DNA from: an uncultured Chloroflexia bacterium
GTDB taxonomy: Bacteria > Chloroflexota > Anaerolineae > Anaerolineales > Villigracilaceae
DNA: 64,000 bases
Assembly: GCA_963829485.1 (NCBI GenBank)
Contig: CAWHIK010000007.1
Coordinates: 135,753 to 199,752, forward strand
Direction: 5' to 3'
Shown here one piece after another: positions 20,079-56,341 of this stretch; the first letter of the stretch is position 1, and each line of letters opens with the position of its first letter. Below the pieces are notes generated by a model that saw nothing but the letters and a program-made list of their open reading frames with translations, had not been told where the DNA came from and did no database searches. The position numbers and the translations under genes were made by a program.

Positions 20079-20095
20079 TGGTCATTCCTCCGTTA

Positions 20096-20413: not shown

Positions 20414-20457
20414 ACACGCCTCCTGAAATAAAAAGATTTATTGGTTTTGACAAAGAT

Positions 20458-20484
20458 TTAGCACTCAACCCTGGCGAGTGCTAA
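20458..20484 (-). promoter_or_regulatory. CIRCE operator (HrcA binding site)
   Basis: Perfect TTAGCACTC-N9-GAGTGCTAA between the promoter and groES. Confidence 0.9.
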
Positions 20485-20494
20485 ATGCAACCTT

Positions 20495-23508: not shown

Positions 23509-24252
23509 ATGCGCTTCGACGTCTTTACCCTTTTCCCCGAAACTTTCGCCCCCTACCTGCAGGCCAGCATCCTGCAGAAAGCCGCCGAACGGGGGCTGGT
23601 CGAGATCAGCCTGCACAACATCCGCGATTGGGCGCGCGACAAGCACCACACCACCGACGATACACCTTACGGCGGCGGCGGCGGGATGGTGATGAAACCC
23701 GAGCCGGTCTTCGAAGCGGTCGAATCCGTGCTGGGACCCGAGCCTGCCTGCCCGGTCATTCTGCTCACGCCGCAGGGACGGGTCTTCAACCATGCGGTCG
23801 CCGAGGAACTGGTGCGGCACGAGCGCATCGCCCTCCTCTGCGGACGGTATGAAGGGGTGGACGAGCGCATCAGGGAAAGCCTGGTCACCGATGAAATCTC
23901 CATCGGCGATTACGTGCTGACGGGCGGCGAGCTGCCGGCCATGATCGTCATCGACGCTGTTTCGCGCCTGATCCCCGGAGTGCTGGGCGACCCCGACGGC
24001 GCCGCCGATGATTCGCACGCCACCGGACTGCTGGAGTACCCGCACTATACGCGCCCGCCGGAGTTCCGCGGACAGGCGGTCCCCGAGACGCTGCTCTCCG
24101 GCGACCATGCGAAGATCGAACAGTGGCGGCGGGAACAGTCCCTGCTGCGGACGCTGCAGCGGCGCCCCGACCTGTTGAAAAGCGCGCCTCTCACCAAGGC
24201 TGATATCAAATTTTTAAAAGAACAAGGTTATGACCCGGAAAGTGGAAAGTAA
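23509..24252 (+). CDS. trmD: tRNA (guanine37-N1)-methyltransferase
   Basis: Canonical TrmD sequence ([11 protein letters not shown]...[13 protein letters not shown]...[10 protein letters not shown]...LTGGELPA). Confidence 0.95.
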
Positions 24253-24275
24253 GGTTCGATTTACTTTCCACTTTT
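24239..24275 (+). terminator. Intrinsic terminator of trmD
   Basis: 14-bp perfect stem AAAGTGGAAAGTAA/TTACTTTCCACTTT that includes the stop codon, followed by T residues. Confidence 0.7.
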
Positions 24276-24303
24276 AATTCAAGCGATGATATAATTAACA
24301 TGG

Positions 24304-25719: not shown

Positions 25720-25756
25720 AACGTCCCGAAGGTCATAAGAAAACCTTCGGGACGTT
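25720..25756. terminator. 14-bp-stem hairpin AACGTCCCGAAGGT/ACCTTCGGGACGTT between convergent genes
   Basis: Perfect stem whose arms are identical to the hairpin at 3787-3817. Confidence 0.6.
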
Positions 25757-28923: not shown

Positions 28924-28963
28924 CAAAAAAAGTTTCAGTCATTTTGAGGATGACTGAAACTTT
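28924..28963 (-). terminator. Rho-independent terminator of the Vps62-like gene
   Basis: 14-bp perfect stem AAAGTTTCAGTCAT/ATGACTGAAACTTT followed on the minus strand by a T run. Confidence 0.8.
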
Positions 28964-31331: not shown

Positions 31332-32132
31332 TCATTTCCCCAATACCAGTCCGGTCGGGTCGATCTCGTGCAGGACGCGTCGTTCCTCGTCCGTGGGTGG
31401 TGCGGTCACGGTGACATTCGCCGGGACAAGGATCTCAAACTCGCTGTTGGCCTGAACTTCGTCCACTGTGACGCCGGGGTGGAGGCTGAGCAGCATGAGT
31501 CGCTTGGATTCCTCGTCGAAGCCGTACACTCCCAACTGGGTGATCACCCGGTAGGGACCGCCCCCCGCGGGCAAGCCGGCTTCCTCGCGTTTGCCGGGTC
31601 CATCCAAATAACCGGGAGTAGTGAGGAAATCCAGTTTGTTCATAAAGGTGCGTTTGCTCTGCCCGCGCATGATGTACATCGTCCGCCAGCAAAATGAGCC
31701 GATGTCATTGGCGCCGCCCGAGCCGGGCAGTCGCGCTTTGGGCCTGGACCAGTCCCCGATGACGGTGGTATTGATGTTGCCATAGGCGTCCATGGCAGCT
31801 GCGCCGAGGAAGCCGTAGTCGATATAGCCCGCCTGAGCCGCGGACATGACATCGTGCATCGAGGATGCGGCCATCGCACGGTGGTAGGTGCGCGAATCGC
31901 CCACTGAGATGGGCAGCACCGGCACCTGCGGCCCCACCCCGCCAGCCTCGAAGATGATCAACATTTTCGGAGCATTGGTCCTCTGGGCAAGCATCGAGGC
32001 GATCATCGGCAGGCCGGTGCCCACAAAGACCGAGCGGTTGTCCTCCAGCAAGCGGGAGGCCACGCAGCACAGCAATTCCGCCAGAGTATAGCCGGCAGCA
32101 GGAGGAACAGCATCCACTTTGCGCATGGTCAT
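31332..32132 (-). CDS. CoA-transferase subunit B (glutaconate/3-oxoacid CoA-transferase family)
   Basis: 266 aa with family I CoA-transferase beta-subunit motifs (FEAGGVG, LPGSGGANDI). Confidence 0.85.
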   Translation of the reverse strand: MTMRKVDAVPPAAGYTLAELLCCVASRLLEDNRSVFVGTGLPMIASMLAQRTNAPKMLIIFEAGGVGPQVPVLPISVGDSRTYHRAMAASSMHDVMSAAQAGYIDYGFLGAAAMDAYGNINTTVIGDWSRPKARLPGSGGANDIGSFCWRTMYIMRGQSKRTFMNKLDFLTTPGYLDGPGKREEAGLPAGGGPYRVITQLGVYGFDEESKRLMLLSLHPGVTVDEVQANSEFEILVPANVTVTAPPTDEERRVLHEIDPTGLVLGK

Positions 32133-32141
32133 CCCCTCCCT

Positions 32142-33159
32142 TCATCTAGAGTCCGTCAGCGGCGACTGTAGTTGCTCGATCTGTTTAAGCCGCTCGAAGA
32201 GCTTCCTCCCGCCGACCTTTTCAAGATATTCATTGAAGTCTTTCACGCCGAAGACATACTTTTCGAAATACTCCTTCGCGCCGGCCTCTGTCTTCGATTG
32301 CTCCAGCCAGCCGCGGATGTGAGGTTCGTCGAAATAGTAAAGGTAGGGCATCTGGCTGGGATGCGCGCCGAAGGGCACCTCGCACACCGCGTCCACCACG
32401 TAAAAGGGGATGGCCGTCTGGCGCGGGTCGCGGCGGGTCTGTTCCTCGTCGATGACCTGCTCTGCCGTGACGATCACGCGCCGGGCAGCGCGCGCCAGTT
32501 CGAAGTCCTCCACAAGGATGCCGTCGATCTGGGCGTTGCCGTACTTGTCGCAGCGCGGCACATGGAACAGGGCCACGTCCGGGTAGGCCGCCGGCAGCAG
32601 GGTGACAGGCTTTGCCGCTCCACGGGTCGCGCACCTGCTTGGCGGAACTCTTCTCGAAGGTGTCGGTGCCGCCCAGGTTGCGCACGGCGATGAAAGGCAC
32701 GCCCATCATCCCCGCCAGGAAGCGCCACTGGTAGCCGGCGTTGGAAAGCTCGGCGACGACCTTCACCTGCCCGCTCTCGACCGCGCGCCGGCCGGAGGGC
32801 GAGAGTCCGCGCAGCTCGTGGCCGAAGGAGTAGGCGCACTCGACGCGGCTGACGCAGCCCGCGCCGATCAGCAGGTCGATGTCATGTACGGCGGTCTTGC
32901 CGGCGACGGCCAGGTCGCGCCGCCCCTGCCGGATGATCTCGTAGACGAGGCTCATCGGCACGCGGACGTGCCCGAATCCGCCGAACGCGATGTAGTCGCC
33001 GTCATGGACATACTCCGCCACCGCTTGCGCCACGCTCATGCGTTTGTCGATCAAGCCGCGCGGCTTGTGATCGCGGATCCAGGCGCGATTCTCGTCCGGG
33101 TCATGCCAGCCGAGCAGCTCGCCGCTGCCTTCTGCAAGGATTTCCATGGACTTGGTCAT
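32142..33159 (-). pseudogene. CoA-transferase subunit A; frame broken near 32606-32616 as assembled
   Basis: ORF 32230..33162 (N-terminal, ...FEKSSAKQVRDPWSGK) continues as PVTLLPAAYPDVALFHVPRCDKYGNAQIDG in ORF 32142..32576. The break is at a short homopolymer. AAGGAGG RBS before ATG 33159. Confidence 0.8.
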
Positions 33160-33185
33160 CAAGCCTCCTTGGGAATGGTGAATCC

Positions 33186-33226
33186 ATTATACGGCAAGTG
33201 CCTCAGAGCGATTCACTCTGAGGCAC
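33186..33226 (-). promoter_or_regulatory. Palindrome + -10 module, copy 1 (GTGCCTCAGAG-N7-CTCTGAGGCAC then TTGCCGTATAAT)
   Basis: 11-bp arms at 33198-33226 and TATAAT at 33186-33191, 27 nt upstream of ATG 33159. Two further copies lie at 40692-40731 and 43351-43391. Confidence 0.5.
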
Positions 33227-33246
33227 CAGGTTTGTTTCAATCTTGA

Positions 33247-34980
33247 TTATTCGGTCGGGCAGACAGGAGCAAGCGGGACTGAGATCTGCTCCAAAAATTT
33301 CTCATCCCATTTTCTTTCCGCACACTCCGGGAGATCATAGACTCCCGCCATGAATTCGGCCGAGCTCATGACCAACCCAGTTGCATCCGGATCCTTCGAA
33401 ATCAGGACATTGCTGCCTTCCCATTCCGCCGTTTCACCGGGGGCGACGCGAAATCCTCCCATCCAGTCAAAATCTTCGGTGCCTGCGTAAACATCCGCAT
33501 GATATTGATTAATGAGATAAAACACGGAATGATCAGCGTCCGTGTTGGTGATCTCAAGCTTATAATCACACGACCGCGAGCCGAATTCGTCGACGATTTC
33601 CTGACGGGTGATCACACCTTTGACTTGAAGCGCTGAAGTCCCATCACAAACTTGGCGGTCGGCATCCCCTGAATCTTTCTCCTCATCGGGCTCCTGGGTG
33701 TTTCTGATCGCGGCGACGGCAGTGGCCACGGCAGGCTGGCTTTCCATGATTTCATCTGTAAGGTCCCCGGCCAGTTGTTCGGCGGTCTCCTCGTCAAGAT
33801 CGGGCATGGCGCTCATCAGGTCCTGTTGAATCCTGTCAGCGATTTCGCTTTTAATCTCATCAACGGACATGTCGACCAAGGTCCCAAGCGGGTTGACATA
33901 CATGTTATTGACAAATTCCGCCCATTCGGAGGCTTTGTCCGCATACTCAAACCCCTGTTGGATCTCCGGGAATGCCGCGGTCAGGGTTTCCTTGACGATC
34001 TCGAATTCCAACTCGGCCCCGCGCTGGAGCAGCTCTGTGCCAACCCGATGGGTGGTTTCGCCGCCCGGACGGTTCGATTCCTGGAATACGGTCTGATAAA
34101 CACCCTGATAAGGACCTCCGGTGTACAGGTCGCTGCGTATACCGGTAACATCCCCCAACTGACCATCCTGGAGGAGCTGCAGGAATTCATCGTAATTCTG
34201 CGCTCCGCCGCGATTTTTATCATCAAGCCAGTAGAAAGCATCTTCTTTCTCTTCCGGAGTCATGGCTGCGGAAACGAATAGAATTTCCTCCCTGGCTTTC
34301 TCATCTTCCTCATTTTTGAATGTGAAGAATTGCTCCAGTGAATCCCAGATGCCTGAGAGATTCCGCGGCAGCGCAGCGCTGGCCAGCTTTCCATCGCCGC
34401 CCCGGGAATCCGAAGCGGCTTGCTGCATCCGTACTTCCAATGCCTGGGCAGCGGCGCGAACCGCTTCCTTCTGATCTGAGATACTCTGCAAACGGGCATA
34501 AAGCGCGTCCACATCGCTCATTTGTATGATATCGATGGAATCCTTAAACGTGCGCTGAAATCCGTTCGAAGCGGTTTCCAGATAAGTCAGTTGTGCAAGA
34601 TCAACCAATAGCATGAAATTCGCCAGGGTTTTCAATTGAGATGCAATCGCTTCATCAGGCCTGCCTCCACCTCTTACCTGCAGGCGGATGGGGACCGAGT
34701 TGCCACTGCCCTGAGCCGGCTCGACGACTTCACGCCAGCTTCCATAGACCAGCCCTTCCGGGCTGACGGCCTCCATGTAGTATTCACCGGCCGGAAGCCG
34801 GAATCGATCAGATTGGGGATTCCCGACATACAGCGCCAGGGATGGAATCCCTTCATAGTTCATTGCGACAACGATCACAGGACCAACGGGTTTTGGGAGG
34901 CTGCAAGACAACGAGGCTGAAACCAGAACCGACACGCACAGCAATAAACGGACCATGAGCTTGAGCTTTGTCTTCATCAA
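33247..34980 (-). CDS. Orphan lipoprotein (577 aa), function unknown
   Basis: Signal/lipobox SLSCS, an acidic helical central region and a Cys-containing C-terminal domain. No family recognised. Confidence 0.65.
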   Translation of the reverse strand: MMKTKLKLMVRLLLCVSVLVSASLSCSLPKPVGPVIVVAMNYEGIPSLALYVGNPQSDRFRLPAGEYYMEAVSPEGLVYGSWREVVEPAQGSGNSVPIRLQVRGGGRPDEAIASQLKTLANFMLLVDLAQLTYLETASNGFQRTFKDSIDIIQMSDVDALYARLQSISDQKEAVRAAAQALEVRMQQAASDSRGGDGKLASAALPRNLSGIWDSLEQFFTFKNEEDEKAREEILFVSAAMTPEEKEDAFYWLDDKNRGGAQNYDEFLQLLQDGQLGDVTGIRSDLYTGGPYQGVYQTVFQESNRPGGETTHRVGTELLQRGAELEFEIVKETLTAAFPEIQQGFEYADKASEWAEFVNNMYVNPLGTLVDMSVDEIKSEIADRIQQDLMSAMPDLDEETAEQLAGDLTDEIMESQPAVATAVAAIRNTQEPDEEKDSGDADRQVCDGTSALQVKGVITRQEIVDEFGSRSCDYKLEITNTDADHSVFYLINQYHADVYAGTEDFDWMGGFRVAPGETAEWEGSNVLISKDPDATGLVMSSAEFMAGVYDLPECAERKWDEKFLEQISVPLAPVCPTE

Positions 34981-35090
34981 TTCACTTGTCCTTTCGGATC
35001 CATCAGGGAATCCAATGTTGATAAAGATTTACTCGGCTATGTCAATGATCTTTTCCTCATTTGATATCCAGAATCTGGTCAATCCCGGCA

Positions 35091-36359
35091 TTAGTTCTCA
35101 TCCACCTCGCACCAACTAGCTGCAAGGTTGGCAAGCACTTTAGTGCAAGAGAGGACCTGCTCAAATTCCACGTATTCATCCACACAATGCACCATCCCGC
35201 CGCGAGGACCGTAAATTACCGCGGGCGTATTGCCATACAGAACAGGCAGGCGCAGGTCGCAGCCGCCTCCCCCTCCGATGATGGGAGCATGTCCGATCAC
35301 CTGCTCGATCTCGCGCGCAGCCGCCAGCACCAGCGGATGGTCGAGACTCACCTCGGCGCTCTCCAGCCTCAGTCCCCACCATTCCACCTCGATGGGATGC
35401 TCCGCGAACCAGGCATCCTGTAAGCCCAAAGCCGAGAGATAATTTTTGAAACCGTTCTTTATCATTTCGATGTCCTCACCCGGCAGTGCCTCGATGGACC
35501 CTTCCAAGTAACAGGCTGAAGGGATGGTCGAAGCCCACTCCCCGCCGTGAATCTTGCAGATGGCCAGCGGCACCTTGACCTTGTAATAGGGGTCATAAAG
35601 CGGGTGTGAAACGGTCGACTCGCGCCAAAGCGAATAGGCTTCCACAGCCTGGTAGACCTGCAGCGCCTTGCCGATCGGGTTGACCAGGTCGTATCGGCCC
35701 TCGATCGATCCTTCAACACCGGTAATTTTCAAGCGGAAGAATTGCGCGCCGCGCTGGGCAATTCCGAGGGCAAAATCCCCGCTCGGTTCGCTGAACACCA
35801 TACCATCGCCGGTGTAACCGCGCAACACGCATGCCAGCGTCCCATTGCCGCCGTTCTCTTCGTCCACCACCGACTCCAAAACCACATCACCCTTGAGTTT
35901 CACACCGGCTTTCTGCAGGGCCTTGACGACCATCAGGTTGACCACGCAGCCGGCTTTCATGTCGGCGGACCCGCGGCCATATACTTTTCCGTCCTCGAAA
36001 TCGCCGCTCCAGGGCGAGTGAGTCCATTTTGCTTCCTCGCCGGTGGGCACTACATCGACGTGACCGTTGAAGATCAACTTTCTGCCTCCGCCTGTGCCTT
36101 TCCAGGTACCGACGACGTTCGGACGCCCGGTGTAGGGAATCTCACTGGGCACGTAAGCCGGGTGGGATTGAAGCTCCGGGTCCACCGGGTCCCAGATATC
36201 CAACTCCAGGGTCATCTTCTTCATCTCGCTTGCGATGATATCCTGAACGCCCTTTTCCCTGCCCGGCAGGGTCGGAATCCTCACCAGGGTTTGCAGCAGG
36301 GCAAGCGCTTCTGCGCGCAGGCCTTCCACTGCTTGATCGATCCGTTCCCGAGTTGCCAT
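35091..36359 (-). CDS. M20-family metallopeptidase/deacylase (ArgE/DapE-like)
   Basis: HVDVVP, GRGSADMKAG and DEENGGNG metal-ligand motifs. Confidence 0.85.
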   Translation of the reverse strand: MATRERIDQAVEGLRAEALALLQTLVRIPTLPGREKGVQDIIASEMKKMTLELDIWDPVDPELQSHPAYVPSEIPYTGRPNVVGTWKGTGGGRKLIFNGHVDVVPTGEEAKWTHSPWSGDFEDGKVYGRGSADMKAGCVVNLMVVKALQKAGVKLKGDVVLESVVDEENGGNGTLACVLRGYTGDGMVFSEPSGDFALGIAQRGAQFFRLKITGVEGSIEGRYDLVNPIGKALQVYQAVEAYSLWRESTVSHPLYDPYYKVKVPLAICKIHGGEWASTIPSACYLEGSIEALPGEDIEMIKNGFKNYLSALGLQDAWFAEHPIEVEWWGLRLESAEVSLDHPLVLAAAREIEQVIGHAPIIGGGGGCDLRLPVLYGNTPAVIYGPRGGMVHCVDEYVEFEQVLSCTKVLANLAASWCEVDEN

Positions 36360-36371
36360 TTTTCTCTCTCC

Positions 36372-37793
36372 TTATTCGTTGACCATCTGCGCTGCCGTCT
36401 CGAGGGCCATTCCCGTCGCGTCCTGTTCGAGGGCGTTCATGATGGTCTCGTATTTAAACTCTGCGCCATCTTCCGCAAAATTACTGATGTGAGGCAGATA
36501 GCCCAAAAAACCATTGGACAGACCGATGACAAACGCCTTCTCGCCCTGTGGAGCATTACGTTCCTGCCAGTCCCGTCCGACTTCCACCAGGGCTTCGCCG
36601 GGCAATGTCATCAAACGATAATCATTCACTTCGATGGTCTGCACTGGAAATGACATTTGCTTTTTGAACGCCGGGTTTGCCAACTTCATGGCCATCATGA
36701 GGAATGTGGAAACTGCCGACATCAACCGCCGCATATCGGACTCATCCATATCCTTTTCAATCACCACGGCCGACGCATCCCGCCAGAGGGTGAAGACAGG
36801 CTTCAGGTTGAGAGGCGATGCCTTGCGGAATTCCGGCAGATATTCCAGGATGATGCGGCGCTGGGCAAGCAGCTGTTTCCACGCCACGAACATTCCCAGA
36901 TTGGTCCGGGTTGGCTTAGCGGTGATGGTGCACTTGTCCACTCGCAGGCGCGTAAGCGGCTGGTGTGCGGTGGACCTCAAACTCCGCGCCACCTCTGTGC
37001 CGAGGGCTGTACCTATTTTTTCTGCGTCCTCGAAGGAGCCGCCCAGGTAGCCGCGCGTATCCAGCGAGTTGTAGAGCGGACGGGTATTGGGGATGACATT
37101 GCCCTCGGTCAGGTTGACGAACAACGCATTCCGGGCTCCGAGCTGCTGTTCGACAACGCGCTGCGCAACACCCGGGTAATCGGCGCTGATCAGCAAATTG
37201 TCGTGCCCCAGGCAGACGGCATGGCATCCCACGCCGAACAACACCGCCAGCGGACGCTCTGTTTCGATCTCGTCCACCTCGAGCGCAAGCACACGCCTAT
37301 CCACCAGGTTATCCGCTCCCCTCTGGCGGCGGTTGACGAGGAAATCCACCTGCCCGACCGCTAATTTCAGTTTCACTTCGACGGTCTTATCACACGCCTG
37401 CTTCCCCACATTGACCAGATTCTTCACCAGCCGGTCAAGGTAATCCCGTACCGGCGCGGCAATGATCAGGCTTTCTTCCACATCCGGCCCGGAATGGGTA
37501 TGCGAGGCGGACATACACAAGCCGGTTTCATCGATCTCCCCTGCGCCGGTCAGGGCAGCGAGAACCTGAGTGTAGATTCCGACCGGCAGCGAAATCAGAT
37601 CAGCGGTGATGAAAAGCAGGCGCTCTCTGCCATCGGTCAGGAAAAGCGCCTTGGCAAAAAGCGGATCGTGCACCCCGAGGCTGGTCTGTTCCGCACGCTG
37701 ACCATACCCGCCCATGCTGATCGGATCAACGGGAGTGATCTCCACCCTGGATGTCCCGGCAAATAACCTCGCCGGGAGTCCATCAAGATTCAT
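36372..37793 (-). CDS. Neutral/alkaline ceramidase-like amidase
   Basis: N-terminal ITP...MGGYG...GVHDPLFAKA and SHTHSGPD motifs typical of the non-lysosomal ceramidase N-domain. Confidence 0.75.
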   Translation of the reverse strand: MNLDGLPARLFAGTSRVEITPVDPISMGGYGQRAEQTSLGVHDPLFAKALFLTDGRERLLFITADLISLPVGIYTQVLAALTGAGEIDETGLCMSASHTHSGPDVEESLIIAAPVRDYLDRLVKNLVNVGKQACDKTVEVKLKLAVGQVDFLVNRRQRGADNLVDRRVLALEVDEIETERPLAVLFGVGCHAVCLGHDNLLISADYPGVAQRVVEQQLGARNALFVNLTEGNVIPNTRPLYNSLDTRGYLGGSFEDAEKIGTALGTEVARSLRSTAHQPLTRLRVDKCTITAKPTRTNLGMFVAWKQLLAQRRIILEYLPEFRKASPLNLKPVFTLWRDASAVVIEKDMDESDMRRLMSAVSTFLMMAMKLANPAFKKQMSFPVQTIEVNDYRLMTLPGEALVEVGRDWQERNAPQGEKAFVIGLSNGFLGYLPHISNFAEDGAEFKYETIMNALEQDATGMALETAAQMVNE

Positions 37794-39127
37794 GCTCCGC
37801 TCTCATTCTCCAATACATATTGCTTGACTTCCTCCGGGGTATCGCCCAGCTTGTAATTTCGGAAGAAGAACAAACCGATCATGACCAGGAGCCCCATGAC
37901 CAGAAAAGCCAAGCGGATGCCCATCGGGTTGGCGAGTGAATATCCAAAATTCTGGTATAGGATCGGCAACAGCAGGACAGCGATAGCCGGTCCGCCTTCC
38001 ACCGCGAGGGAAAAGGCGCCGTAGTAAATGGCCTCTCGGCGGGTCTTGGTTTTAATCTCATCGTAATCCGCGACCGAGCCCATCATGGCATAGGGGAGCA
38101 TCGAGCTGCCTGCCAGCATGAAGCCGAGCGCCATGAAGATCGCAAAAGTCATGATCGTGGCGGGTGTTCCCGGGATGCTTCCAATCAGGAATCCGGCAGC
38201 GTATATGACGCCCAGGATAATGGTGGCCGTCTGCCAGACCTTCCGGTTCAGTCGTTTTCGACCGATCCTGTTCCAGAAGATGGCTGCAAATGCCATCACC
38301 AGGATCACAACCCCCATGACGATGGAAACAAAATCGGTTGGCATTCCCAGAACCTGGGTCACAAAATAAGGCAGGTTTACGACCAGCATCCCGTATGCAG
38401 ATTGAACGAACAGGATAGCGAGGAAGAGGTGTAAGAATTGTCGGTTCTTGAAGGTTGCCATCAAGCTCTTTGTAACCGGAAGTGGTTCACCCAGCTCTTC
38501 GCTTTTCTTCTCTCTTAGTCCAAGCAGCGTCAGCACGCCTCCGATCAATGCGGCGATCCCAACAACAATCCCCATCCCCCGGGGTCCGAACGCAGAGTTA
38601 TAGAGGATACCGGAGGCGAGTGCGCCAACCAGCACGCCCACCAGGGCGAACACATTCTTCCAGGCAGCCAGGGTAACCCGGTCCTTCGGGTCATCCGCCA
38701 TTTCAGGCAGGGCCGCGTCATATGGGATCTGCCAGGCGCTCTGAGCACCGTAAAAGGCGACAGTGATGACTAGAAAATAAATGATATTTGCTGTGGAGGC
38801 ATACTGGTCTGGGGGGGTCCAGATCAAGATCAAAGCCAATACAGATAAGGGAAGGAAGACCAAGATAAATGGTCTTCGCCTACCCAGTCTGCCGCGGCGG
38901 GTATCGCTCCAGTGCCCGAGGAAGGGGTCGATTACTGCATTGACAATACTTCCGACCGCCATCAGGATCCCGATTATTGCCAGGGGGACAAGGTTCGGAC
39001 GGCCCGAGTCGGGCGGGGGTGCGTAGGTGAACATCAACCAGGTGGATACTGTGATCGCCATGATATTGGTGCTGATGGATGCCGAGCTGAAGAGCAACAT
39101 CCGGCCGGTGGAAAGTTTCGCGCTCAT
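37790..39127 (-). CDS. GPH-family (MelB-like, MFS_2) glycoside/cation symporter
   Basis: 445 aa, 12 TM helices, DPFLGHWSDTRRGRLGRRRPF motif. 4-nt overlap with the downstream gene. Confidence 0.85.
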   Translation of the reverse strand: MSAKLSTGRMLLFSSASISTNIMAITVSTWLMFTYAPPPDSGRPNLVPLAIIGILMAVGSIVNAVIDPFLGHWSDTRRGRLGRRRPFILVFLPLSVLALILIWTPPDQYASTANIIYFLVITVAFYGAQSAWQIPYDAALPEMADDPKDRVTLAAWKNVFALVGVLVGALASGILYNSAFGPRGMGIVVGIAALIGGVLTLLGLREKKSEELGEPLPVTKSLMATFKNRQFLHLFLAILFVQSAYGMLVVNLPYFVTQVLGMPTDFVSIVMGVVILVMAFAAIFWNRIGRKRLNRKVWQTATIILGVIYAAGFLIGSIPGTPATIMTFAIFMALGFMLAGSSMLPYAMMGSVADYDEIKTKTRREAIYYGAFSLAVEGGPAIAVLLLPILYQNFGYSLANPMGIRLAFLVMGLLVMIGLFFFRNYKLGDTPEEVKQYVLENESGA

Positions 39128-39201
39128 GTTGTATGTCTCCTGTAATCGTTGGATGAATTGAGAATGGCGGAATGAATGCGATCGATGTTGGCAAATTGAC
39201 G

Positions 39202-40512
39202 TTAACGCACCTCCGCTTTCACCTCGCGAGCCGCCTCGAGGATTTTCCCGACTGCACTGTCAAGGGTCTCGTTGTCGTGCTGCGCAGAGACCGTAAAATC
39301 CGTATGAAAATACAGTCCCTTCTGAATGCATTTATTGAAAAGTGATTTTGCCATTGCAGGATTGAGCTTGTCGAAATCCTTGTACTGCGTCACCGGTTCG
39401 CGCGTTCCTACATAGATGAAGAAATTACAGCCCAGGTGCTGCACTCGGGCGGTGAAACCTTCGTCATCGAATCCGGATTGGAGACTGTCGGTGAAACGAT
39501 CCACTTGTTCCAGCCAGGATTCAAAAAATCCCGGCTCTTCCATGATTCGAAGCGCAGCCAGGCCGGCTGCACATCCCATCAGGTTTCCTGAGAAAGTTCC
39601 GCCCGCAACAACAGGATCTACAGGATCCATGATTTTTGACAGGATTTTTTTCTTTCCCGCGATCGCAGCCAGCGGCACTCCATTGGTAAGCGCCTTGCCC
39701 AGCAGGCACAGATCCGGCGTTACGCCATAATACCCCTGCCCGCACGAGATGCCTGTGCGGAATCCTGAAAGTATTTCATCCATAATGAAAACAATCCCGT
39801 GAAGGTCACAGACTTCTCGGATTTTTTGAAGGTACTCGGTGGTTGTCCCCATACAGCCATTGTTGTAATCAATCGGATTCATGATAATTGCTGCGATTTC
39901 ATGGCCTTTTTCTTTGGCCAGCTTTTCGAACACATCAGGCCGGTTCCAGGGAATTACATAAAGCGTTTCCTTAATAACGTCAGGGATACCAGAAGAAAGG
40001 TGGCCAATTTTTGATATTCGATTTCCAGGATTTCCCCGGTCAATTTTCGAAGCCAGATTATTCGCAAGCGCATAATCATGCCCGCCGTGAAAATGACCGT
40101 CAATTCTTACAACCTTGCTTCGCCCTGTATAGCCCCTTGCCAGGCGCATGGCCAATAAAGTGCCTTCGCTTCCGGAGTTGACGTACCGCACTTGTTCTGC
40201 GCAAGGAACATGCTGGACGATTTTTCTGGCAAGTTCAACAGTTAACGAGTGATCGTACTCCGCAAAAAAACCAAGGTTTAACGCATCTGTGATTGCTTCG
40301 CGAATCTCCGGTCGGTTATGCCCCAGCGGGCACGCGCCGTGGCCCATAAAGAAGTCCACATAATGGCGGCCAGCGAGGTCATATATGGATGATCCATCCG
40401 CCCTGCTGAGGTACATGGGCTGGCCCGTGTAGGGATTGATCCGAAAGCTTGACGACACGCCTCCCACCAGGAACTTTTCAGCCTCATTTTTAAATTCGTC
40501 AATCACAAGCAT
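39202..40512 (-). CDS. Class III (PLP) aminotransferase, glutamate-1-semialdehyde-aminomutase-like
   Basis: SGSEGTLLAMRLAR, DEILSGFR and the GKALTNG lysine motif. AAGGAGA RBS. Confidence 0.9.
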   Translation of the reverse strand: MLVIDEFKNEAEKFLVGGVSSSFRINPYTGQPMYLSRADGSSIYDLAGRHYVDFFMGHGACPLGHNRPEIREAITDALNLGFFAEYDHSLTVELARKIVQHVPCAEQVRYVNSGSEGTLLAMRLARGYTGRSKVVRIDGHFHGGHDYALANNLASKIDRGNPGNRISKIGHLSSGIPDVIKETLYVIPWNRPDVFEKLAKEKGHEIAAIIMNPIDYNNGCMGTTTEYLQKIREVCDLHGIVFIMDEILSGFRTGISCGQGYYGVTPDLCLLGKALTNGVPLAAIAGKKKILSKIMDPVDPVVAGGTFSGNLMGCAAGLAALRIMEEPGFFESWLEQVDRFTDSLQSGFDDEGFTARVQHLGCNFFIYVGTREPVTQYKDFDKLNPAMAKSLFNKCIQKGLYFHTDFTVSAQHDNETLDSAVGKILEAAREVKAEVR

Positions 40513-40534
40513 TTTGGGATTCTCCTTTTATACA

Positions 40535-40565
40535 ATTATGTCATAAACGACGATTCCAAATCGTC
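40535..40565 (-). promoter_or_regulatory. Small hairpin (40549-40565) followed by a CATAAT -10-like box (40535-40540) proximal to the aminotransferase gene
   Basis: GACGATT-TGG-AATCGTC then GTTTATGACATAAT on the minus strand, the same layout as the repeats at 59.5-63.2 kb. Confidence 0.35.
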
Positions 40566-40590
40566 AAAAACAAAAATAGCCGTGCGGATA

Positions 40591-40665
40591 TCAACATTGC
40601 GCGTGGACCATTTTTCCGAGCAGCTCGCCGCTGCCTTCTACAAGGATTTCCATAGACTTGGTCAT
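40591..40665 (-). other. 24-codon remnant ORF created by duplication of the CoA-transferase A 5' end (MTKSMEILVEGSGELLGKMVHAQC*)
   Basis: Part of the 117-nt block 40616-40731, which is homologous to 33110-33226. It retains the AAGGAG RBS. Confidence 0.5.
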
Positions 40666-40691
40666 CGGCTCTCCTTGGGAATGATTAAATC

Positions 40692-40731
40692 ATTCTATGG
40701 CAAGTGCCTCAGAGCGATTCATCTGAGGCAC
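40692..40731 (-). promoter_or_regulatory. Palindrome + -10 module, copy 2 (degenerate: TAGAAT, right arm 1 nt shorter)
   Basis: GTGCCTCAGA...TCTGAGGCAC at 40704-40731 and TAGAAT at 40692-40697. Confidence 0.45.
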
Positions 40732-40756
40732 ACTTTATACTCCGTATAACGATCGA

Positions 40757-41917
40757 CTATTTTCCATCGCGGATGATCGTCCCGTTATGGATGACCATGC
40801 GGATGCTTGCCAGGTTTTGCAGGTCTTCCAACGGATTTCCCGAAACAACCAAAACATCGGCGATCTTTCCAGCTTCAAGCGTCCCCGCCTCGTCTTCGAT
40901 ACCCAGCACGTGCGCGGCATTCTTCGTGGACGCAAGGATGATCTGCATGGGCGTCATCCCTGCTGCGGACATCTGCTCGATCTCGTACATCGGGATTCCC
41001 AGCTCGAATTTACCCGGACCTCCCCCGTAGTCATTGCCGAGAGCCACTTGCCCGCCCTGTTCAACAAAATTACGGAGATTGAGTACGCACGTGCTGATCG
41101 GCGCGCCGTAATTCTTGAAGACGGTAAAGGTTGGGGTCATGTAGATGCCCTTCGCCACCATTTCCCGCCAGGTTTCATCAGACACTACGTCATATGTGAT
41201 GTGGGCAATATCATCCACACCGGCTTCCACCAAAATCTCGAGGTACTCAACCTGTGTGATGTGCCCTGATACCAAAGCCCCGCGTTCGTGCGATGCGGAA
41301 ATGATGGCATCCAGTTCCTCATCGGTCAGCTTGGGCAAGCCGGACTGCCCGGCATAACCATCCTCCATCGAAAGCTTGATCATGTCCACGCCGGCGTCCA
41401 ACTGCTCGAATACTTTCCGGCGCGCTTCTTCAGGTGAGGCAACAAACAACTCGCCGTATCCGTCGGGGACGGTCATCATATAGCCGGCTGAGATGAGGCG
41501 CGCATTCATCGGATCCAAAGCAGCTGAATCGCGAAAGGCTATCAGCTCCTCCAGTGATTCGTCCGAGAGAATCGACTCGTCGCGCACCGTGGTGACTCCA
41601 CCGTAAGCCCAGGCCTGCAAGTTCTCCTCATTAAAACCAAAGTGGACATGGGCATTGATAAAGCCGGGCAGGATGGTATTTCCCTTCAGGTCAATGACAC
41701 GCGCCCCTCGAGGGATCTCGACCTCGTCCTTGGAACCAACCGCTACAATCCGCTCGCCTTTGATGATCAGAACAGCATCGGGAATCGGTTCCGCTCCGGT
41801 GCCATCAACCAATGTGCCGTTAACCAGCGCCAGCGTGTCCAGATCTGGCGCAGAAAGAGAGCAACCGGTCAGAAATAAGATAACGACCATGAAAAGGATT
41901 ATTTTTCGGATTAACAT
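40757..41917 (-). CDS. Secreted/lipoprotein amidohydrolase-family metallohydrolase
   Basis: Lipobox LTGCS and the HxH motif (FINAHVHF). GGAG RBS before ATG 41917; the alternative GTG 41953 overlaps the upstream gene. Confidence 0.85.
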   Translation of the reverse strand: MLIRKIILFMVVILFLTGCSLSAPDLDTLALVNGTLVDGTGAEPIPDAVLIIKGERIVAVGSKDEVEIPRGARVIDLKGNTILPGFINAHVHFGFNEENLQAWAYGGVTTVRDESILSDESLEELIAFRDSAALDPMNARLISAGYMMTVPDGYGELFVASPEEARRKVFEQLDAGVDMIKLSMEDGYAGQSGLPKLTDEELDAIISASHERGALVSGHITQVEYLEILVEAGVDDIAHITYDVVSDETWREMVAKGIYMTPTFTVFKNYGAPISTCVLNLRNFVEQGGQVALGNDYGGGPGKFELGIPMYEIEQMSAAGMTPMQIILASTKNAAHVLGIEDEAGTLEAGKIADVLVVSGNPLEDLQNLASIRMVIHNGTIIRDGK

Positions 41918-41942
41918 AAGTCTCCGGCAAGACACCACAAAG

Positions 41943-43293
41943 TTACCTCGCACAGACTTCCTCGATCACATTCCACAGCACGGGCAGGCCGCTCTCGATA
42001 AAGGATACCGGCAGGCGCTCGTCGTGCCCGTGGCCGAGAGACACAGTAGGAAACTCGGGAGGCAGCATGCCGGGCGTGAACCCGTAAGTCTGGATGCCGG
42101 CCTTCTGGTACTGCGACGCGTCCGTCGCGCCGGGCATCATCAGCGGGACGATCAATCCCTCCGTGTCCATCTTGCGGGTGCAGCGCTCCAGCGTTTTGTA
42201 GAGTGGCGACTCGGCGGACACCTGAGCCCCGTCCGAGGTTTGGAGCGGTTCAAATGTAAAGCCCTCCCCCACGATGGCTTTGATCTCGCGAATCACATCC
42301 TCCACCGACTGACCGGGCAGCTTGCGGCAATCGAGGTGCACTTCCGCCGTGGAAGGGATGACGTTGGTTTTTGAGCCGGCCTGCAACACCGTCGGCGTGC
42401 ATGTGTTGGTCGTCAAAGCCGTCAGGATGGAACCACCTGTGCCCTTGATCCTCGGCAAGGCAAGATTGACCGCGGCCGGGCTGCCCATCAGACCGACCAG
42501 CATCTTCAAGGGCCAACGGACCTGCCCCGAGGCGGATTTCAACATGCTGCGGAAAGTGGGCGTGATGTGCACCGGTAAATGGCCGGCTTTGCGGATGCGC
42601 TCGATGGCCTGCGCCAAATGCAGCACGGCATTGTCCCTATGCGGCAGGGACGCGTGCCCGGGCTTGCCGCTGGCGGTCATGCGCAGCCAGCAGACACCCT
42701 TTTCCGCCACCTGGATCATGTAAGCCTTCGTCTTCCCAAAGTAGAGCGTCATCGCGCCGCCCTCGGTCAGCGCATATTCGGCGTCGATCAGATCGTGGTG
42801 TTGCTCGGTCAGGAACTGCGAGCCATGGGTGAAACCAGCCTCCTCGTCGGCGATCGCCGCCAGGATCAAATCGCGCTTGAGGGGCAAGCCGCGCCGGCTT
42901 CACCTGCAGGAAGATCTGCAGGTACATCGAGAGGAAGCCCTTCATGTCGAGGGCGCCGCGCCCCCACACCTCGCCATTGATCACCTCGCCGCCGAAGGGA
43001 TCGTGAGTCCAGCGCTCGCGCTCCACCGGCACCACGTCCACATGACCGGAGAGCAGTAGCGGTCGCTGTGACCCGTCGCCTCGCAGGCGGGCCACCAGAT
43101 TCACCCGTCCCGGTGCAGACTCGAGGATCTTGAAGTCCTCGCTGCCAAATCCCTCGCGCTCGAGGATTTCCTTGACCACCCGGATGGCGGGCTCCTCGTT
43201 CCCCGGCGGGTTGACCGTCTCAGCGCGGATCAAGCGGGAAAGGTGACCTACGGTCTCGTCGGTTGCGGATTTCCAGTTGATGGGTTCAGGCAT
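41943..43293 (-). pseudogene. M20-family metallopeptidase; frame broken near 42888-42900 as assembled
   Basis: ORF 42637..43293 (HVDVVPV, GRGALDMKG ... LQVK) continues in ORF 41943..42887 (GLPLKRDLILAAIADEEAG...). An extra C in a CC run would explain the break. Confidence 0.8.
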
Positions 43294-43350
43294 GGCTGCT
43301 CATCTCCAGTGCAGGAAAATCTTGGCTATCTATGAAAATGTCACTAATCC

Positions 43351-43391
43351 ATTATACGGCAAGTGTCTCAGAGCGAATCGCTCTGAGACAC
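43351..43391 (-). promoter_or_regulatory. Palindrome + -10 module, copy 3 (GTGTCTCAGAGCG-AAT-CGCTCTGAGACAC then TTGCCGTATAAT)
   Basis: 13-bp arms at 43363-43391 carrying a compensatory C>T / G>A pair relative to copy 1. TATAAT at 43351-43356. Confidence 0.5.
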
Positions 43392-43433: not shown

Positions 43434-44084
43434 TTACTCCAGCCAGCCTCTGCCAATGTCAGCCGCCTGCTGGCGAAAGAAAGCCTTTACCATTTCCCAT
43501 TCCAGCGGCTCAAGCATATCAGGTGGTTCATCCTGCTCGGCGCGCTCGAAGTAGACAAGCCGCTTCACCGCCTGTGCCTCAAAATCACGAACACCGGGGT
43601 ACTTCTGCGGCGCCAGACGCAACAATTCCCGCAGAGGTCTGCGCTGGCAAATGGCATACAGGTCGTAAAAATCCTTGCGGGCAGCACGGGCAAGCAGCGC
43701 ATCCAGCTTCATCAAGGCGATGTCTGCGACACTGGCAAGTTTTATCCCTTCAATGTCGACCAGGGGCTCAACAAGGTCATACCCATATCCATGGAAACCC
43801 GTTCGAATCCCCCTTGCGACGTAGACCAGACTGCCCCATGCCGAATCCGCCAGAATAGGCTCAAAGGAGGCGAGCGACTGCAGTAAAGGTTCTTTAATGG
43901 ATGGGATGTCTTCAGTGGGCGAAAAATAATCCAGGTCTACGGACCTGCGATGTCCGAGCTGCAGCGCCAGCGCTGTACCTCCGGCGAGATAAAACCGTTT
44001 GCCGATATCCGTCTGCGAAAAGGCGGACGCGATCTCGCGCATTCCGGGGGAAACAGTCTCCCAGAAAATATCAGGCATCGTCAT
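43434..44084 (-). CDS. AbiEii/AbiGii-family nucleotidyltransferase toxin (type IV TA)
   Basis: FYLAGGTALALQLGHRRSVDLDYF motif. ATG 44084 overlaps the upstream stop as ATGA. Confidence 0.8.
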   Translation of the reverse strand: MTMPDIFWETVSPGMREIASAFSQTDIGKRFYLAGGTALALQLGHRRSVDLDYFSPTEDIPSIKEPLLQSLASFEPILADSAWGSLVYVARGIRTGFHGYGYDLVEPLVDIEGIKLASVADIALMKLDALLARAARKDFYDLYAICQRRPLRELLRLAPQKYPGVRDFEAQAVKRLVYFERAEQDEPPDMLEPLEWEMVKAFFRQQAADIGRGWLE

Positions 44085-44329
44085 GCATCCAGCAGGAATT
44101 TCCAGAAGGTGAGATGCGGCTCCGGCAGGCGCTCCGGACCGGACCCGCTCAACCAATCCAGGATTTGTTTGCGCGGATAGCGTCCGAACAGCCAGCGGAT
44201 CTCTTCCCGGTTGCCGAACTGCAATGTGCGCTCAATGACGGTCGATGCCGCGCGGTCAGAGTCGAGATCGCTCAGGGAATACTCTTGAAAAAAAGGCGCG
44301 AGGGTTTGGGGAATGGCTGTCATTGGCAT
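44081..44329 (-). CDS. Small partner protein of the AbiEii-type toxin (putative antitoxin, DUF6922-like)
   Basis: 82 aa (FFQEYSLSDLD...VIERTLQFGNREEIRWLF). Translationally coupled to the toxin. The family name is from memory. Confidence 0.6.
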   Translation of the reverse strand: MPMTAIPQTLAPFFQEYSLSDLDSDRAASTVIERTLQFGNREEIRWLFGRYPRKQILDWLSGSGPERLPEPHLTFWKFLLDA

Positions 44330-44404
44330 GGTTTCATCTTACAACACCCATTTGAATGCTGCAAGACCCGAATAAGTTTTACTGATTAACCGGCAAGTCA
44401 TAAA

Positions 44405-44431
44405 GCAGGTCACGCATGAAGCGTGACCTGC
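44405..44431 (-). terminator. Hairpin terminator after the SBP gene
   Basis: GCAGGTCACGC-N5-GCGTGACCTGC, an 11-bp perfect stem 11 nt after the stop. Confidence 0.6.
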
Positions 44432-48069: not shown

Positions 48070-49111
48070 CTAACCCATGCCAGCCGTCTTCAACACCCGC
48101 AAGGCACGAAGCGTGACCCATTTATTAGGTTGCTTCTTCGCGCCGAAGTCCACCCAGGTCTTTCCGGTGTAGTCGTACTCCAGCGCCCACCGACCGTTCG
48201 CATCCTGCTTCTCACGGACCAGCGTTATGGCTCGAGCCAACCGCGGATCATTGACATAGCCCAGGGCAGTCAACGCTTCCACGACCTGGAGCAGATCCGT
48301 CGCATAGAATACCGGGAAGCCGAACTTCCACCAGTTCCCGCTGGGTTTGCTTGCGAAACCGGTCGGGTAAGCCGCGTCCGCCGGGTCCACGCTGAACAGG
48401 AAATCCACCCCATGCTGGATGGCACGTTTGATGACCGGCGTATACTTCTTTTTCGGCAATCTTCCCAGAGCCAGCATTACCTTGACGCCGCCCCACGCGC
48501 ACGGCAGTTTGTTATTCGAGCCGCAGGCAAAAGTGGGGCCGCATTTCCCGGCATAGTAGCGCTCAGCAGCGTTTACGATCTCCCACTTGGGCAATGCCCT
48601 CGCCGGTGACAGTGCGCGCCATCCAGTCGAACGCCTTGTCCAGGCGTGGATCTTCATATCCCAGTTCCTGCAATGCCCAGAGGAGATTTCCCTGCAGGCA
48701 GTCGGCGGTACCGGAAGGCGCGCCCGATGCGGTGAATTGGCCGCCTTCAGCAAGGGCATGCTCCATCAGATAAGCGCACGCCTTTGCGATTCGCTTATCC
48801 TCCTTAATGGAAGCCCCCAACTGTGCCAGTAGAATCACCGACCAGACCGTGGACCGGTACTTCGGGTTGTAACCGGGACCCGGCTCGACCCAGAAGCCTT
48901 CCTTGTCCATGTTGCTCAAGATGGTTGCGATGGGACCTTTTTGGTGGGCGGCTTCTCGCGCTGTCCGCAGGTCTGAATCATCGCTGGGGCGATCCAACAA
49001 ATCTCGAAGTGCCAGATAACGTACATCTGGTGTTTCGGTCTCCAATAACCAGGATTGTGGATCCTTTTTGGGTTGATCCTTCCGGGACACAGGCATCACC
49101 TCCGATGGCAT
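48070..49111 (-). pseudogene. Prenyltransferase/squalene-cyclase-repeat (alpha/alpha toroid) protein; frame broken near 48586-48598 as assembled
   Basis: ORF 48563..49111 (...FDWMARTVTGEGIA) continues in ORF 48070..48759 (PKWEIVNAAERYYAGKCGP...). Repeats of the Q..DG.W type (KEGFW, DANGRW). Confidence 0.7.
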
Positions 49112-52119: not shown

Positions 52120-52148
52120 CTGGCAATATATTCAAATTGCCGTATACT
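52120..52148 (+). promoter_or_regulatory. Candidate promoter CTGGCA-17 nt-TATACT with the dyad GGCAAT-N8-ATTGCC, upstream of the ABC operon
   Basis: The TTGCCGTATACT string resembles the -10 context of the three palindrome modules. It lies about 155 nt upstream of ATG 52303. Confidence 0.4.
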
Positions 52149-52302
52149 ATGAACGTGCACATGTTCCAGCGTCGCACCCCGTTGACCACACACACCTTTG
52201 GACACGCTTCCGTGTTAAGAGAAGGAGGCCAACGGTTTAATTTTCCCCTCACCCCAACAACCTTAATGAAAACCGCCATTCCAAAAAGGAGGAGCATTTA
52301 AC

Positions 52303-53448: not shown

Positions 53449-53510
53449 GACCATTCCTATAAACCACAGAGCCTCCCTATAACCGGGAGGCTCTGGAAGG
53501 ATTTCGCCGG

Positions 53511-56299: not shown

Positions 56300-56327
56300 T
56301 TGAAAATTATAACAAATTTGTTATAAT
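56300..56327 (+). promoter_or_regulatory. HigBA promoter TTGAAA-16 nt-TATAAT overlapped by a perfect 22-bp palindrome (operator)
   Basis: ATTATAACAAATTTGTTATAAT at 56306-56327 includes the -10 box. Confidence 0.6.
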
Positions 56328-56341
56328 GGGGACGAAAGCCC

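Follow-up and report, generated by a model that had tools for sequence, protein, structure and literature searches.

A repeated hairpin-promoter unit before three operons of an uncultured Anaerolineae bacterium: likely reuse of one CoA-transferase promoter at an insertion hot spot

Three neighbouring operons of an uncultured Anaerolineae bacterium begin with almost the same short sequence, which raises the question of whether they share a regulator or merely the origin of their promoters. The operons lie in a stretch of 64,000 nucleotides (nt) of contig CAWHIK010000007.1 (assembly GCA_963829485.1), which was analysed as a whole and is referred to as the window. On its minus strand a 46-nt unit, composed of a 29-nt palindrome followed by TTGCCG, TATAAT and GGATT, occurs three times. 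A sequence-only reading had regarded the copies either as operator sites of a dimeric regulator or as a terminator-promoter fusion reused three times. On balance, we think it probable that all three copies represent one promoter unit of the coenzyme A (CoA)-transferase operon of an Anaerolineae-like clade, hairpin-insulated and devoid of a -35 box, that was reused through local rearrangement. The second of the two ideas, a discrete palindrome plus -10 module that is reused, is thus close to the comparative data. The notion of independent operator sites defining a regulon finds no support, as the sites are copies of one promoter: copy 2 retains 51 nt of the CoA-transferase gene, and copy 3 matches the AbiE/CoA-transferase copy of relatives. 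We therefore speak of promoter reuse and see no clear evidence of a shared regulator.

Inspection of the sequence confirmed the three copies and their parts:

33181-33226, minus strand: copy 1 of the 46-nt unit
33198-33226, minus strand: palindrome of copy 1, GTGCCTCAGAG-TGAATCG-CTCTGAGGCAC, 11-N7-11, effectively 14-1-14 with one U.G pair
33181-33197, minus strand: promoter core of copy 1, TTGCCG (33192-33197), TATAAT (33186-33191, predicted -10 box) and GGATT
40687-40732, minus strand: copy 2 of the unit
40704-40731, minus strand: palindrome of copy 2, left arm 1 nt shorter, followed by TTGCCA and TAGAAT (40692-40697)
40680-40694, minus strand: 7-1-7 dyad AATGATTTAATCATT of copy 2, overlapping the -10 box and followed by the Shine-Dalgarno (SD) sequence
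43346-43391, minus strand: copy 3 of the unit
43363-43391, minus strand: palindrome of copy 3, GTGTCTCAGAGCGA-T-TCGCTCTGAGACAC, perfect 14-1-14
43345-43362, minus strand: core of copy 3, TTGCCG, TATAAT (43351-43356) and GGATTA, 57 nt before the ATG of the M20 peptidase gene (43293)

With slashes for the unit edges, copy 1 reads cctg/GTGCCTCAGAG TGAATCG CTCTGAGGCAC TTGCCG TATAAT GGATT/cacc, copy 2 aagt/GTGCCTCAGA- TGAATCG CTCTGAGGCAC TTGCCA TAGAAT GATTT, and copy 3 tccc/GTGTCTCAGAG CGATTCG CTCTGAGACAC TTGCCG TATAAT GGATT/agtg. The copies form a family of direct repeats that align without gaps at 70-91% identity, the highest value (91% over 46 nt) being that between copies 1 and 3. All of them have the non-palindromic TTGCCG and GGATT elements in common and show sharp edges and unrelated flanks. 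A search of the window for CTCAGAG-N7-CTCTGAG with up to two mismatches returned two matches where 0.21 were expected, and none of 100 shuffled sequences reached two; copy 2 escapes this pattern only through its 1-nt deletion. A second dyad overlaps the -10 box and the predicted start, perfect in copy 2 (AATGATT-T-AATCATT) and reduced to AATGG-N5-CCATT in copy 1. It recurs in two related loci (L059 and L076a, see below), is confined to the 5' region of the CoA-transferase gene and is not seen in copy 3; a separate operator or a hairpin at the 5' end are possible roles.

The similarity between copies 1 and 2 continues well beyond the unit:

33110-33226, minus strand: copy 1 side of a repeat of about 117 nt, with palindrome, core, 5' untranslated region (UTR) and 51 nt of coding sequence from the start of CoA-transferase A
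40616-40732, minus strand: copy 2 side of the same repeat, with palindrome, core, SD sequence and CoA-transferase remnant
40591-40665, minus strand: remnant open reading frame (ORF) of 24 codons, MTKSMEILVEGSGELLGKMVHAQC and a stop (it begins MTKSMEILVEGSGELLG), in which codons 1-17 correspond to the beginning of CoA-transferase A

Apart from the palindrome, 89% of 106 nt are identical (33110-33215 versus 40616-40721). In copy 1 the core is followed by the SD sequence AAGGAGG and the ATG of CoA-transferase A at 33159, and the repeat takes in SD sequence, ATG and 17 codons (51 nt) of this gene. The corresponding remnant of copy 2 lies upstream of an aminotransferase gene, which has its own SD sequence and starts at 40512. 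Since the repeat includes coding sequence, copy 2 represents the CoA-transferase promoter, duplicated and decapitated. We considered a recent duplication of copy 1 and rejected it, as copy 2 is more diverged from copy 1 than are the orthologues of L059 and L080. Copy 2 also has a UTR variant in common with L110/L111, although overall it is no closer to L110, and its 1-nt arm deletion recurs in L081a and L082a. Its divergence and these variants point to an old or imported allele.

To place copy 3 and the inserted genes, the following neighbours have to be considered:

31332-33159, minus strand: both CoA-transferase subunits, A and B, which are the unit's native cargo; frameshift in subunit A near 32611-32618
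33247-40512, minus strand: cassette of 7.3 kilobases (kb) between copy 2 with its remnant and copy 1, without counterpart at this position in relatives
40757-43293, minus strand: M20 peptidase and amidohydrolase, downstream of copy 3; frameshift in M20 near 42890
43434-44329, minus strand: AbiEi-like (DUF6922) and AbiEii toxin-antitoxin pair, 86% identical to a pair that is flanked by two copies of the unit in L084-L087

The cassette encodes a class III aminotransferase, an MFS_2 transporter, a ceramidase-like protein, an M20/ArgE-DapE deacylase and a secreted 577-amino acid (aa) protein of unknown function. CoA-transferase A has many close homologues, some of them labelled as Anaerolineae, and syntenic loci were taken from genomes with CoA-transferases that are 85-96% identical (labelled L0xx/L1xx). 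A nhmmer profile of the unit was run on the window and these loci. The unit lies directly before the CoA-transferase genes in L059, L076, L080, L081/L082 and L084-L087 and hence is the native upstream region of that operon. More distant CoA-transferase homologues (L088-L095, in thiolase, BKACE or divergent contexts) lack it. Where the CoA-transferase genes are at least 85% identical, at least eight different upstream neighbours occur (genes for a 577-aa protein, HicB, M20, a 637-aa protein, AbiEii, and 143-aa, 339-aa and 327-aa proteins), which marks the site as an insertion hot spot.

Second copies are not peculiar to the window. Copies stand before and after the AbiE pair in L084-L087, an additional one precedes a GT87-containing cassette in L081/L082 (the one with the arm deletion of copy 2), and another precedes a 358aa-M20 operon in L076. 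In L058 and L059 the M20(-amidohydrolase) genes are directly followed by the CoA-transferase genes, with nothing but HicAB intervening in L059. Compared with these two loci, the window carries two insertions, the 7.3-kb cassette and a PeptMA-SBP5-AbiE segment ahead of M20 that ends in copy 3. The AbiE proteins share 86% identity with their counterparts in L085, a locus in which the post-AbiE copy precedes the CoA-transferase genes. In relatives the M20-amidohydrolase genes come after a 339-aa gene without an intervening unit, and homology of the window to this native 339aa-M20 spacer starts only about 35-40 nt before the M20 ATG. Taken together, the extent of the copy 1/copy 2 repeat and the AbiE and M20-spacer comparisons indicate that all three copies are one promoter, truncated at different points past the predicted start.

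Which part of the unit matters can be judged from an alignment of 14 instances. Mean pairwise identity is highest in the -10 box (95-100%), followed by TTGCCG (91-94%) and the palindrome arms (79-88%); loop and GGATTA are at about 70% each, and the flanks at the random level (34-41%). The TTGCCG-TATAAT core is thus the best conserved block, with the arms next and the loop last. Positions A2, A4, A5 and T6 of the -10 box are invariant in all 14 instances, A2 and T6 being the two most conserved positions of sigma-70 -10 elements.

It is important to note that the palindrome in front of the core is exchangeable. The site sequence of the three window copies (type 1) is kept in L059, L076a, L080, L081b and L084b (arms 88%). 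In L076b it has decayed to a fold no better than shuffled sequences (-9.4 kcal/mol, z = -0.5) before an intact core, TTGCCGTATAAT. In L058 and L108/L109 its place, 6 nt before TATAAT, is taken by an unrelated type-2 palindrome, GTAGGTCACGC-TTCAA-GCGTGACCTRC. In L107, L108 and L110/L111 only the last 6 nt of the right arm survive, the rest being supplanted by a type-3 element (CCCCCAAATTCGC-N34-GCGAATTTGGGGG with a GC-rich tail). The window itself contains a type-2 example:

44385-44431, minus strand: fourth, degenerate copy upstream of AbiEi/AbiEii, with type-2 palindrome GCAGGTCACGC-TTCAT-GCGTGACCTGC (44405-44431), then TTTATGAC and core TTGCCGGTTAAT (44385-44396)

This copy is the orthologue of the unit upstream of AbiE in L084-L087. 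Each hairpin type occurs with the core in at least two gene contexts. As the core is kept behind three different hairpins, the upstream element would either act by its structure or be dispensable, and an essential sequence-specific activator site is disfavoured. Likewise, decay or replacement of the palindrome next to a retained core argues against an essential sequence-specific operator. The type-3 element itself extends over about 100 nt (L107 582-680, L108 589-690, and L110/L111 upstream of the CoA-transferase genes), with 13-bp arms, a 34-nt loop and the GC-rich tail. It meets the core at the same junction (..ggggtc/AGGCAC TTGCCG) in three gene contexts, so that it either inserts site-specifically into the palindrome or spreads with the core.

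The promoter assignment is unusual in one respect. No TTGACA-like hexamer was found 16-18 nt upstream of the -10 box of any copy, and a scan with a consensus promoter calls none of them. At the expected -35 position lie the loop and right arm, with GAATCG or a similar sequence, which agrees with the earlier remark that the palindrome fills this space. The three bases ahead of the -10 box are CCG or CCA, so that no TGn extension is present either, and the hexamers themselves are TATAAT in copies 1 and 3 and TAGAAT in copy 2. A sigma-54 promoter was rejected, since the GG and GC elements of GGCAC/TTGC are 5 nt apart and about 10 nt are needed. At the groES-groEL operon (minus strand, 18438-20486), in contrast, the canonical promoter TTGACT-17-TATTAT stands ahead of a perfect CIRCE element, TTAGCACTC-N9-GAGTGCTAA (20456-20486). 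This operon offers an internal reference for a promoter and a known operator in this genome, and its canonical boxes make the missing -35 box of the unit a real peculiarity.

The palindrome is predicted to form a stable hairpin. Palindrome-containing segments fold with -19.7 to -26.5 kcal/mol (z = -2.8 to -5.5); the 66-nt segments of copies 1 and 3 reach -26.5 kcal/mol (z = -5.1) and -25.4 kcal/mol, respectively. The hairpins lie 20, 24 and 42 nt past the co-directional stops at 33247, 40757 and 43434, the first belonging to the 577-aa gene and the last to AbiEii, and across all instances they start about 20-107 nt past such a stop.

The structure of the repeats, the truncated remnant of the CoA-transferase gene, the differences in synteny among relatives, the conservation gradient and the interchangeable hairpins suggest to us the following course of events. 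The unit would be a self-contained transcription-start element of about 46 nt, covering roughly -47 to -2 relative to the predicted start, with two parts: a stable hairpin-forming palindrome over -35 region and spacer, and a -35-independent core, TTGCCG-TATAAT-GGATT, in which TATAAT would serve as the active -10 box. Insertions at the hot spot just upstream would leave additional promoter copies, each cut at a different downstream point, before new neighbours. The intact copy 1 would drive the CoA-transferase genes; copy 2, with its 5' UTR and 17 codons, would now head the aminotransferase/transporter/ceramidase-like/M20 cassette, and copy 3 would be the post-AbiE copy of relatives, here joined to the M20-amidohydrolase genes. 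Recombination, either homology-assisted or illegitimate, may have produced the copies, and the palindrome itself perhaps promoted it. The hairpin might act by structure, not by sequence: it could terminate or insulate the co-directional gene ahead of it, or stabilise 3' ends.

Several observations weigh against this scenario. No proper U-tract follows the hairpin on the gene strand: the tail UUGCCGUA is marginal (UUGCCGUAUA has three U in its first 8 nt), and an A-rich run often precedes the hairpin. A scan for terminators picks up copies 1 and 2 solely on the plus strand, where no gene ends, and the clear terminators of the window do have U-tracts. The type-1 hairpin moves with the core past eight different upstream genes, and this joint travel is explained by a cis element tied to the promoter, possibly an operator, no less well than by a terminator of the upstream gene. 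Moreover, arm sequence and not pairing alone is conserved, and given the canonical boxes at groESL a promoter without -35 box may need a factor. At best, then, the hairpin would be a partial terminator, an insulator or a 3'-end stabiliser that moves with the promoter.

The sequence-only reading had also pointed to copy 3, where a C>T change in the left arm is matched by G>A in the right arm. This pair is real and leaves the dyad a perfect 14-1-14. Its description as a compensatory double substitution needs qualification, since the same T/A pair is found in L072 (the orthologue of copy 3) and in the CoA-transferase copy of L081/L082 and is therefore a circulating allele, not private to copy 3, and since uncompensated changes occur elsewhere. 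Such transitions are seen in L059 (C.A), L072 (A.C), L084b (two U.G) and L081b/L082a (U.G), and single uncompensated changes in L059, L072 and L084-L087. A covariation check had been suggested by the same reading; in our pair counts over the 14 sequences, 91% of the cells are paired and cell-level measures beat all but 1-3 of 500 shuffles, yet the number of pairs with a double change (pair 14-36 in three sequences, pair 15-35 in one) is unremarkable, being reached in 105 of 500 shuffles. Because the aligned sequences are related, these statistics overstate the support. A strand bias of wobble pairs was tried as a sign of an RNA-level hairpin and proved uninformative (about four U.G versus two or three C.A events). 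Pairing thus appears mildly favoured in the alignment, which fits a hairpin. Quasipalindrome mutagenesis, the self-templated correction inside a palindrome, would give the same pattern without selection, and the "compensatory" pair may have come from such self-templating or from weak selection for pairing.

A serious though less likely alternative is that the palindrome is the operator of a dimeric or tetrameric regulator and that promoter duplication has created a small regulon over the CoA-transferase, M20-amidohydrolase and aminotransferase operons. As the palindrome covers -35 region and spacer, such a regulator would most likely be a repressor. The geometry speaks for it, with a perfect or near-perfect dyad whose 11-N7-11 form ends at a fixed 6 nt before TATAAT in every type-1 copy, and so does the lack of a -35 box in an organism with canonical promoters elsewhere. 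The arms are conserved in sequence (88% in six CoA-transferase orthologues), and not only in pairing, while the loop varies; the downstream genes are plausibly tied to amino-acid/peptide catabolism, and L076 has the unit at both its 358aa-M20 and CoA-transferase operons. However, close relatives have the palindrome decayed or swapped for unrelated hairpins with the core kept, the same unit precedes a toxin-antitoxin pair and unrelated small ORFs, 11-14 conserved bp per arm exceed what a single helix-turn-helix half-site needs, and symmetric double changes are not predicted by selection for protein contacts. No further copies were found in the remainder of the window, in the fetched regions of relatives or in 185,579 species representatives, and the real metagenome matches all belong to this locus. 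Nor does the cluster or any of the related loci contain a regulator gene. Pfam and NCBIfam scans, which covered every sizeable ORF between 27.6 and 50 kb of the window, detected no regulator besides the AbiEi-like antitoxin and no recombinase, and no DNA-binding domains were found in the cluster and related loci save those of toxin-antitoxin antitoxins. For the interval from 27.6 to 50 kb this upholds, with the AbiEi-like antitoxin as sole exception, the earlier statement that the cluster contains no regulator gene. That the palindrome is the own operator of the AbiEi antitoxin was considered as well and rejected, as most unit-bearing relatives have no AbiE genes and the window copy upstream of AbiE has lost the type-1 palindrome.

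We regard it as unlikely that the palindrome is a recombination or insertion target, of a trans-acting host recombinase or of hairpin-targeted insertion, at which each event regenerates the unit and builds up an array of promoter-separated cassettes. Variable cassettes do lie between copies of the unit in the window, in L081/L082 and in L084-L087, thus in three lineages, several rearrangement junctions coincide with the palindrome's left edge, with a point in its right arm (AGGCAC/TTGCCG; L107, L108, L110) or with GGATTA, and the 11-7-11 geometry recalls the core sites of tyrosine recombinases. In addition, about 7 of 137 positions differ between copy 1 and the near-identical CoA-transferase copy of L080, and four of these differences fall into the 7-nt loop, which is therefore a mutational hot spot. 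Against this, no cassette contains a recombinase or transposase, and the proteins adjoining the unit are mutually unrelated; the 577-, 637-, 561- and 287-aa proteins, which were examined as a common recombinase, have no similarity among them. The repeat of copies 1 and 2 runs 88 nt past the palindrome into coding sequence, which suits homologous or illegitimate recombination and not a crossover at a core site. Target-site duplications and integron R'/R'' boxes are missing, and the site varies among close relatives, unlike dif. A Xer/dif or attC site in particular was ruled out by motif, copy number and lack of a recombinase: no recombinase domain occurs in the scanned window ORFs or cassettes, and the arms lack GTTRRRY. 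The related thought that the hairpin-promoter unit is the organising site of an integrase-less cassette shuffling in Anaerolineae, in which recombination stimulated by the palindrome or targeted to the hairpin would bring operon-sized cassettes (toxin-antitoxin pairs, peptidase/transporter sets) to the palindrome or its immediate vicinity, is one that we hold with little conviction.

That the unit is an ordinary dispersed repeat of the REP (repetitive extragenic palindrome) or MITE (miniature inverted-repeat transposable element) kind, or a generic terminator near these genes by chance, is very improbable, even though the lineage has repeated intergenic palindromes (the ACGTCCCGAAGG...CCTTCGGGACG family) and type-2 and type-3 elements recur in several contexts, because the type-1 palindrome is always joined to the TTGCCG-TATAAT core and its copies are restricted, in the sequences searched, to one locus. 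Neither the rest of the window (about 50 kb) nor the fetched related loci outside this neighbourhood contained further type-1 copies. A scan of one representative genome each of 185,579 species for GYCTCAGAG-N7-CTCTGAGRC gave 57 matches, all unrelated terminators at chance level, none of which carried the GTG...CAC plus TTGCC context. Metagenomes searched with right arm plus core gave three real matches, all in the CoA-transferase locus, and viral contigs, searched with right arm plus core and with the core alone, gave chance matches only. Rfam gave no match at gathering threshold for the window as a whole and none of relevance at E <= 1 between 33 and 44.5 kb. A GTAG head (type 1 starts with GTGC), direct repeats at the flanks and, in the ORFs scanned, transposase-like domains are likewise missing. 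Within the window, the related loci and the collections scanned, the motif is accordingly not the generic dispersed REP or terminator that the sequence-only reading had named as the outcome that would speak against it.

Among known systems the closest category is promoter reuse, and on the features tested the unit falls outside the REP/MITE, attC/dif and canonical terminator families. Reuse of promoters apart from their genes has been documented as putative mobile promoters (Matus-Garcia, Nijveen and van Passel 2012, PMC3575422), the definition of which demands 80% identity or more across a minimum of 50 nt in front of genes whose coding sequences are not paralogous. As in that study, very similar upstream sequence stands before non-homologous genes of one genome without a known mobile element, and rearrangement rewires expression. 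By the measure of that study (PMC3575422), copies 1 and 3 fall just short (91% over 46 nt), and copies 1 and 2 (89% over 106 nt) include a coding remnant and would have been filtered. The unit differs from putative mobile promoters in its length (46 nt as against 50), in including the -10 box, in the confinement of all copies to 11 kb at one hot spot, and in the original coding sequence carried by one copy, which indicates local rearrangement and not transposition.

Compact terminator-promoter junctions resemble the unit in having a stable GC-rich stem-loop 20-42 nt past a stop with a -10 box right after it (the same layout is seen at 24239-24295); unlike intrinsic ones, the unit lacks a gene-strand U-tract and its hairpin moves with the downstream promoter across at least eight upstream genes. 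With CIRCE/HrcA (9-N9-9; in the window at 20456-20486) it has in common a long near-perfect inverted repeat with variable spacer at a fixed position relative to the promoter. CIRCE, however, sits downstream of canonical -35/-10 boxes and is conserved across phyla, whereas the palindrome of the unit takes the place of the -35 region, is restricted to a single locus in one clade and has been exchanged or lost in close relatives. REP/REPIN, Correia and ERIC repeats are also short intergenic palindromes with promoter potential; the unit is not dispersed, has no GTAG head, terminal inverted repeats or target duplications, and no RAYT or other transposase was seen. Integron attC and Xer-dif (pdif) sites are palindromes of 11-spacer-11 type between cassettes, including toxin-antitoxin cassettes. 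The unit has no integrase or conserved core motifs, and its repeats enter flanking coding sequence; it carries a promoter and precedes genes, whereas attC follows a promoterless cassette.

Other palindromes and promoters of the region deserve mention. The sequence-only reading had pointed to a related element before a pot-like operon. The sequence TTGCCGTATACT (52137-52148) is indeed present, is conserved in L058 and L059 and has the decamer TTGCCGTATA in common with the unit, whereas the GGCAAT/ATTGCC dyad ascribed to it is not conserved and a -35-like CTGGCA is found at 17 nt. This promoter may share the core element and is not another copy of the unit. Between it and the solute-binding-protein gene lies a conserved leader of about 150 nt (window 52150-52300, L058 3050-3200, L059 3060-3200) without Rfam match, and a conserved hairpin without U-tract (53467-53495) follows that gene inside the operon. 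Two further hairpins have orthologues in L058. That at 28929-28963 (L058 15701-15735) has several changes with the palindrome kept (AAAGTTTCAGTCAT versus AAAGTGACAGTCAC), and that at 24239-24274 (L058 19056-19091) has kept its arms and varied its loop; TATAAT follows 15 nt later without a -35 box, so that the hairpin-then-(-10) layout of the unit recurs with an unrelated hairpin. A second family of repeated palindromes, (A)CGTCCCGAAGG...CCTTCGGGACG(T), occurs at 3787-3817 and 25720-25756 of the window and at 5925-5985 of L081. The ACGTCCCGAAGG...CCTTCGGGACG palindrome stands after genes in the window and is inserted in the 5' UTR of L081/L082, between the unit and the CoA-transferase SD sequence; the family looks like a REP/MITE-like mobile hairpin of the lineage. 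A Gp49/HigB-like toxin gene (56342-56668) is preceded by the 10-2-10 palindrome ATTATAACAAATTTGTTATAAT (56306-56327; whole element 56306-56668), which is probably an autoregulated toxin-antitoxin promoter, and HicAB of L059 has a similar palindromic promoter. Another palindrome, 49 nt long and with perfect arms of 19 bp, GTCAAAAACAGATATGTAG...CTACATATCTGTTTTTGAC (7937-7985), separates two divergent genes, a minus-strand ORF that ends at 7810 and a glycoside-hydrolase-like gene on the plus strand whose start is at 8045. Finally, three genes need a frameshift to match intact orthologues (78-95% identity), namely CoA-transferase A (about 32611-32618), M20 (42890-42898) and the 339-aa homologue (48572-48654). 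They are either assembly indel errors or real pseudogenes and bear on the trust to be placed in single-base indels in the window.

If local reuse of the CoA-transferase promoter is the correct explanation, the locus would be a natural example of how a compact promoter with its hairpin is carried before other operons by insertions at a hot spot, and because one copy retains a piece of the original gene, this history can be read from the sequence. If, on the other hand, the unit organised cassette shuffling, each insertion would leave an insulated, -35-independent promoter before the displaced genes, so that insertions would never be polar. The example also calls for caution, as identical motifs before neighbouring operons need not imply a shared regulator. 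For the Anaerolineae and the Chloroflexota, which are poorly studied and mostly uncultured, the unit provides a candidate -35-independent promoter core, TTGCCG-TATAAT.

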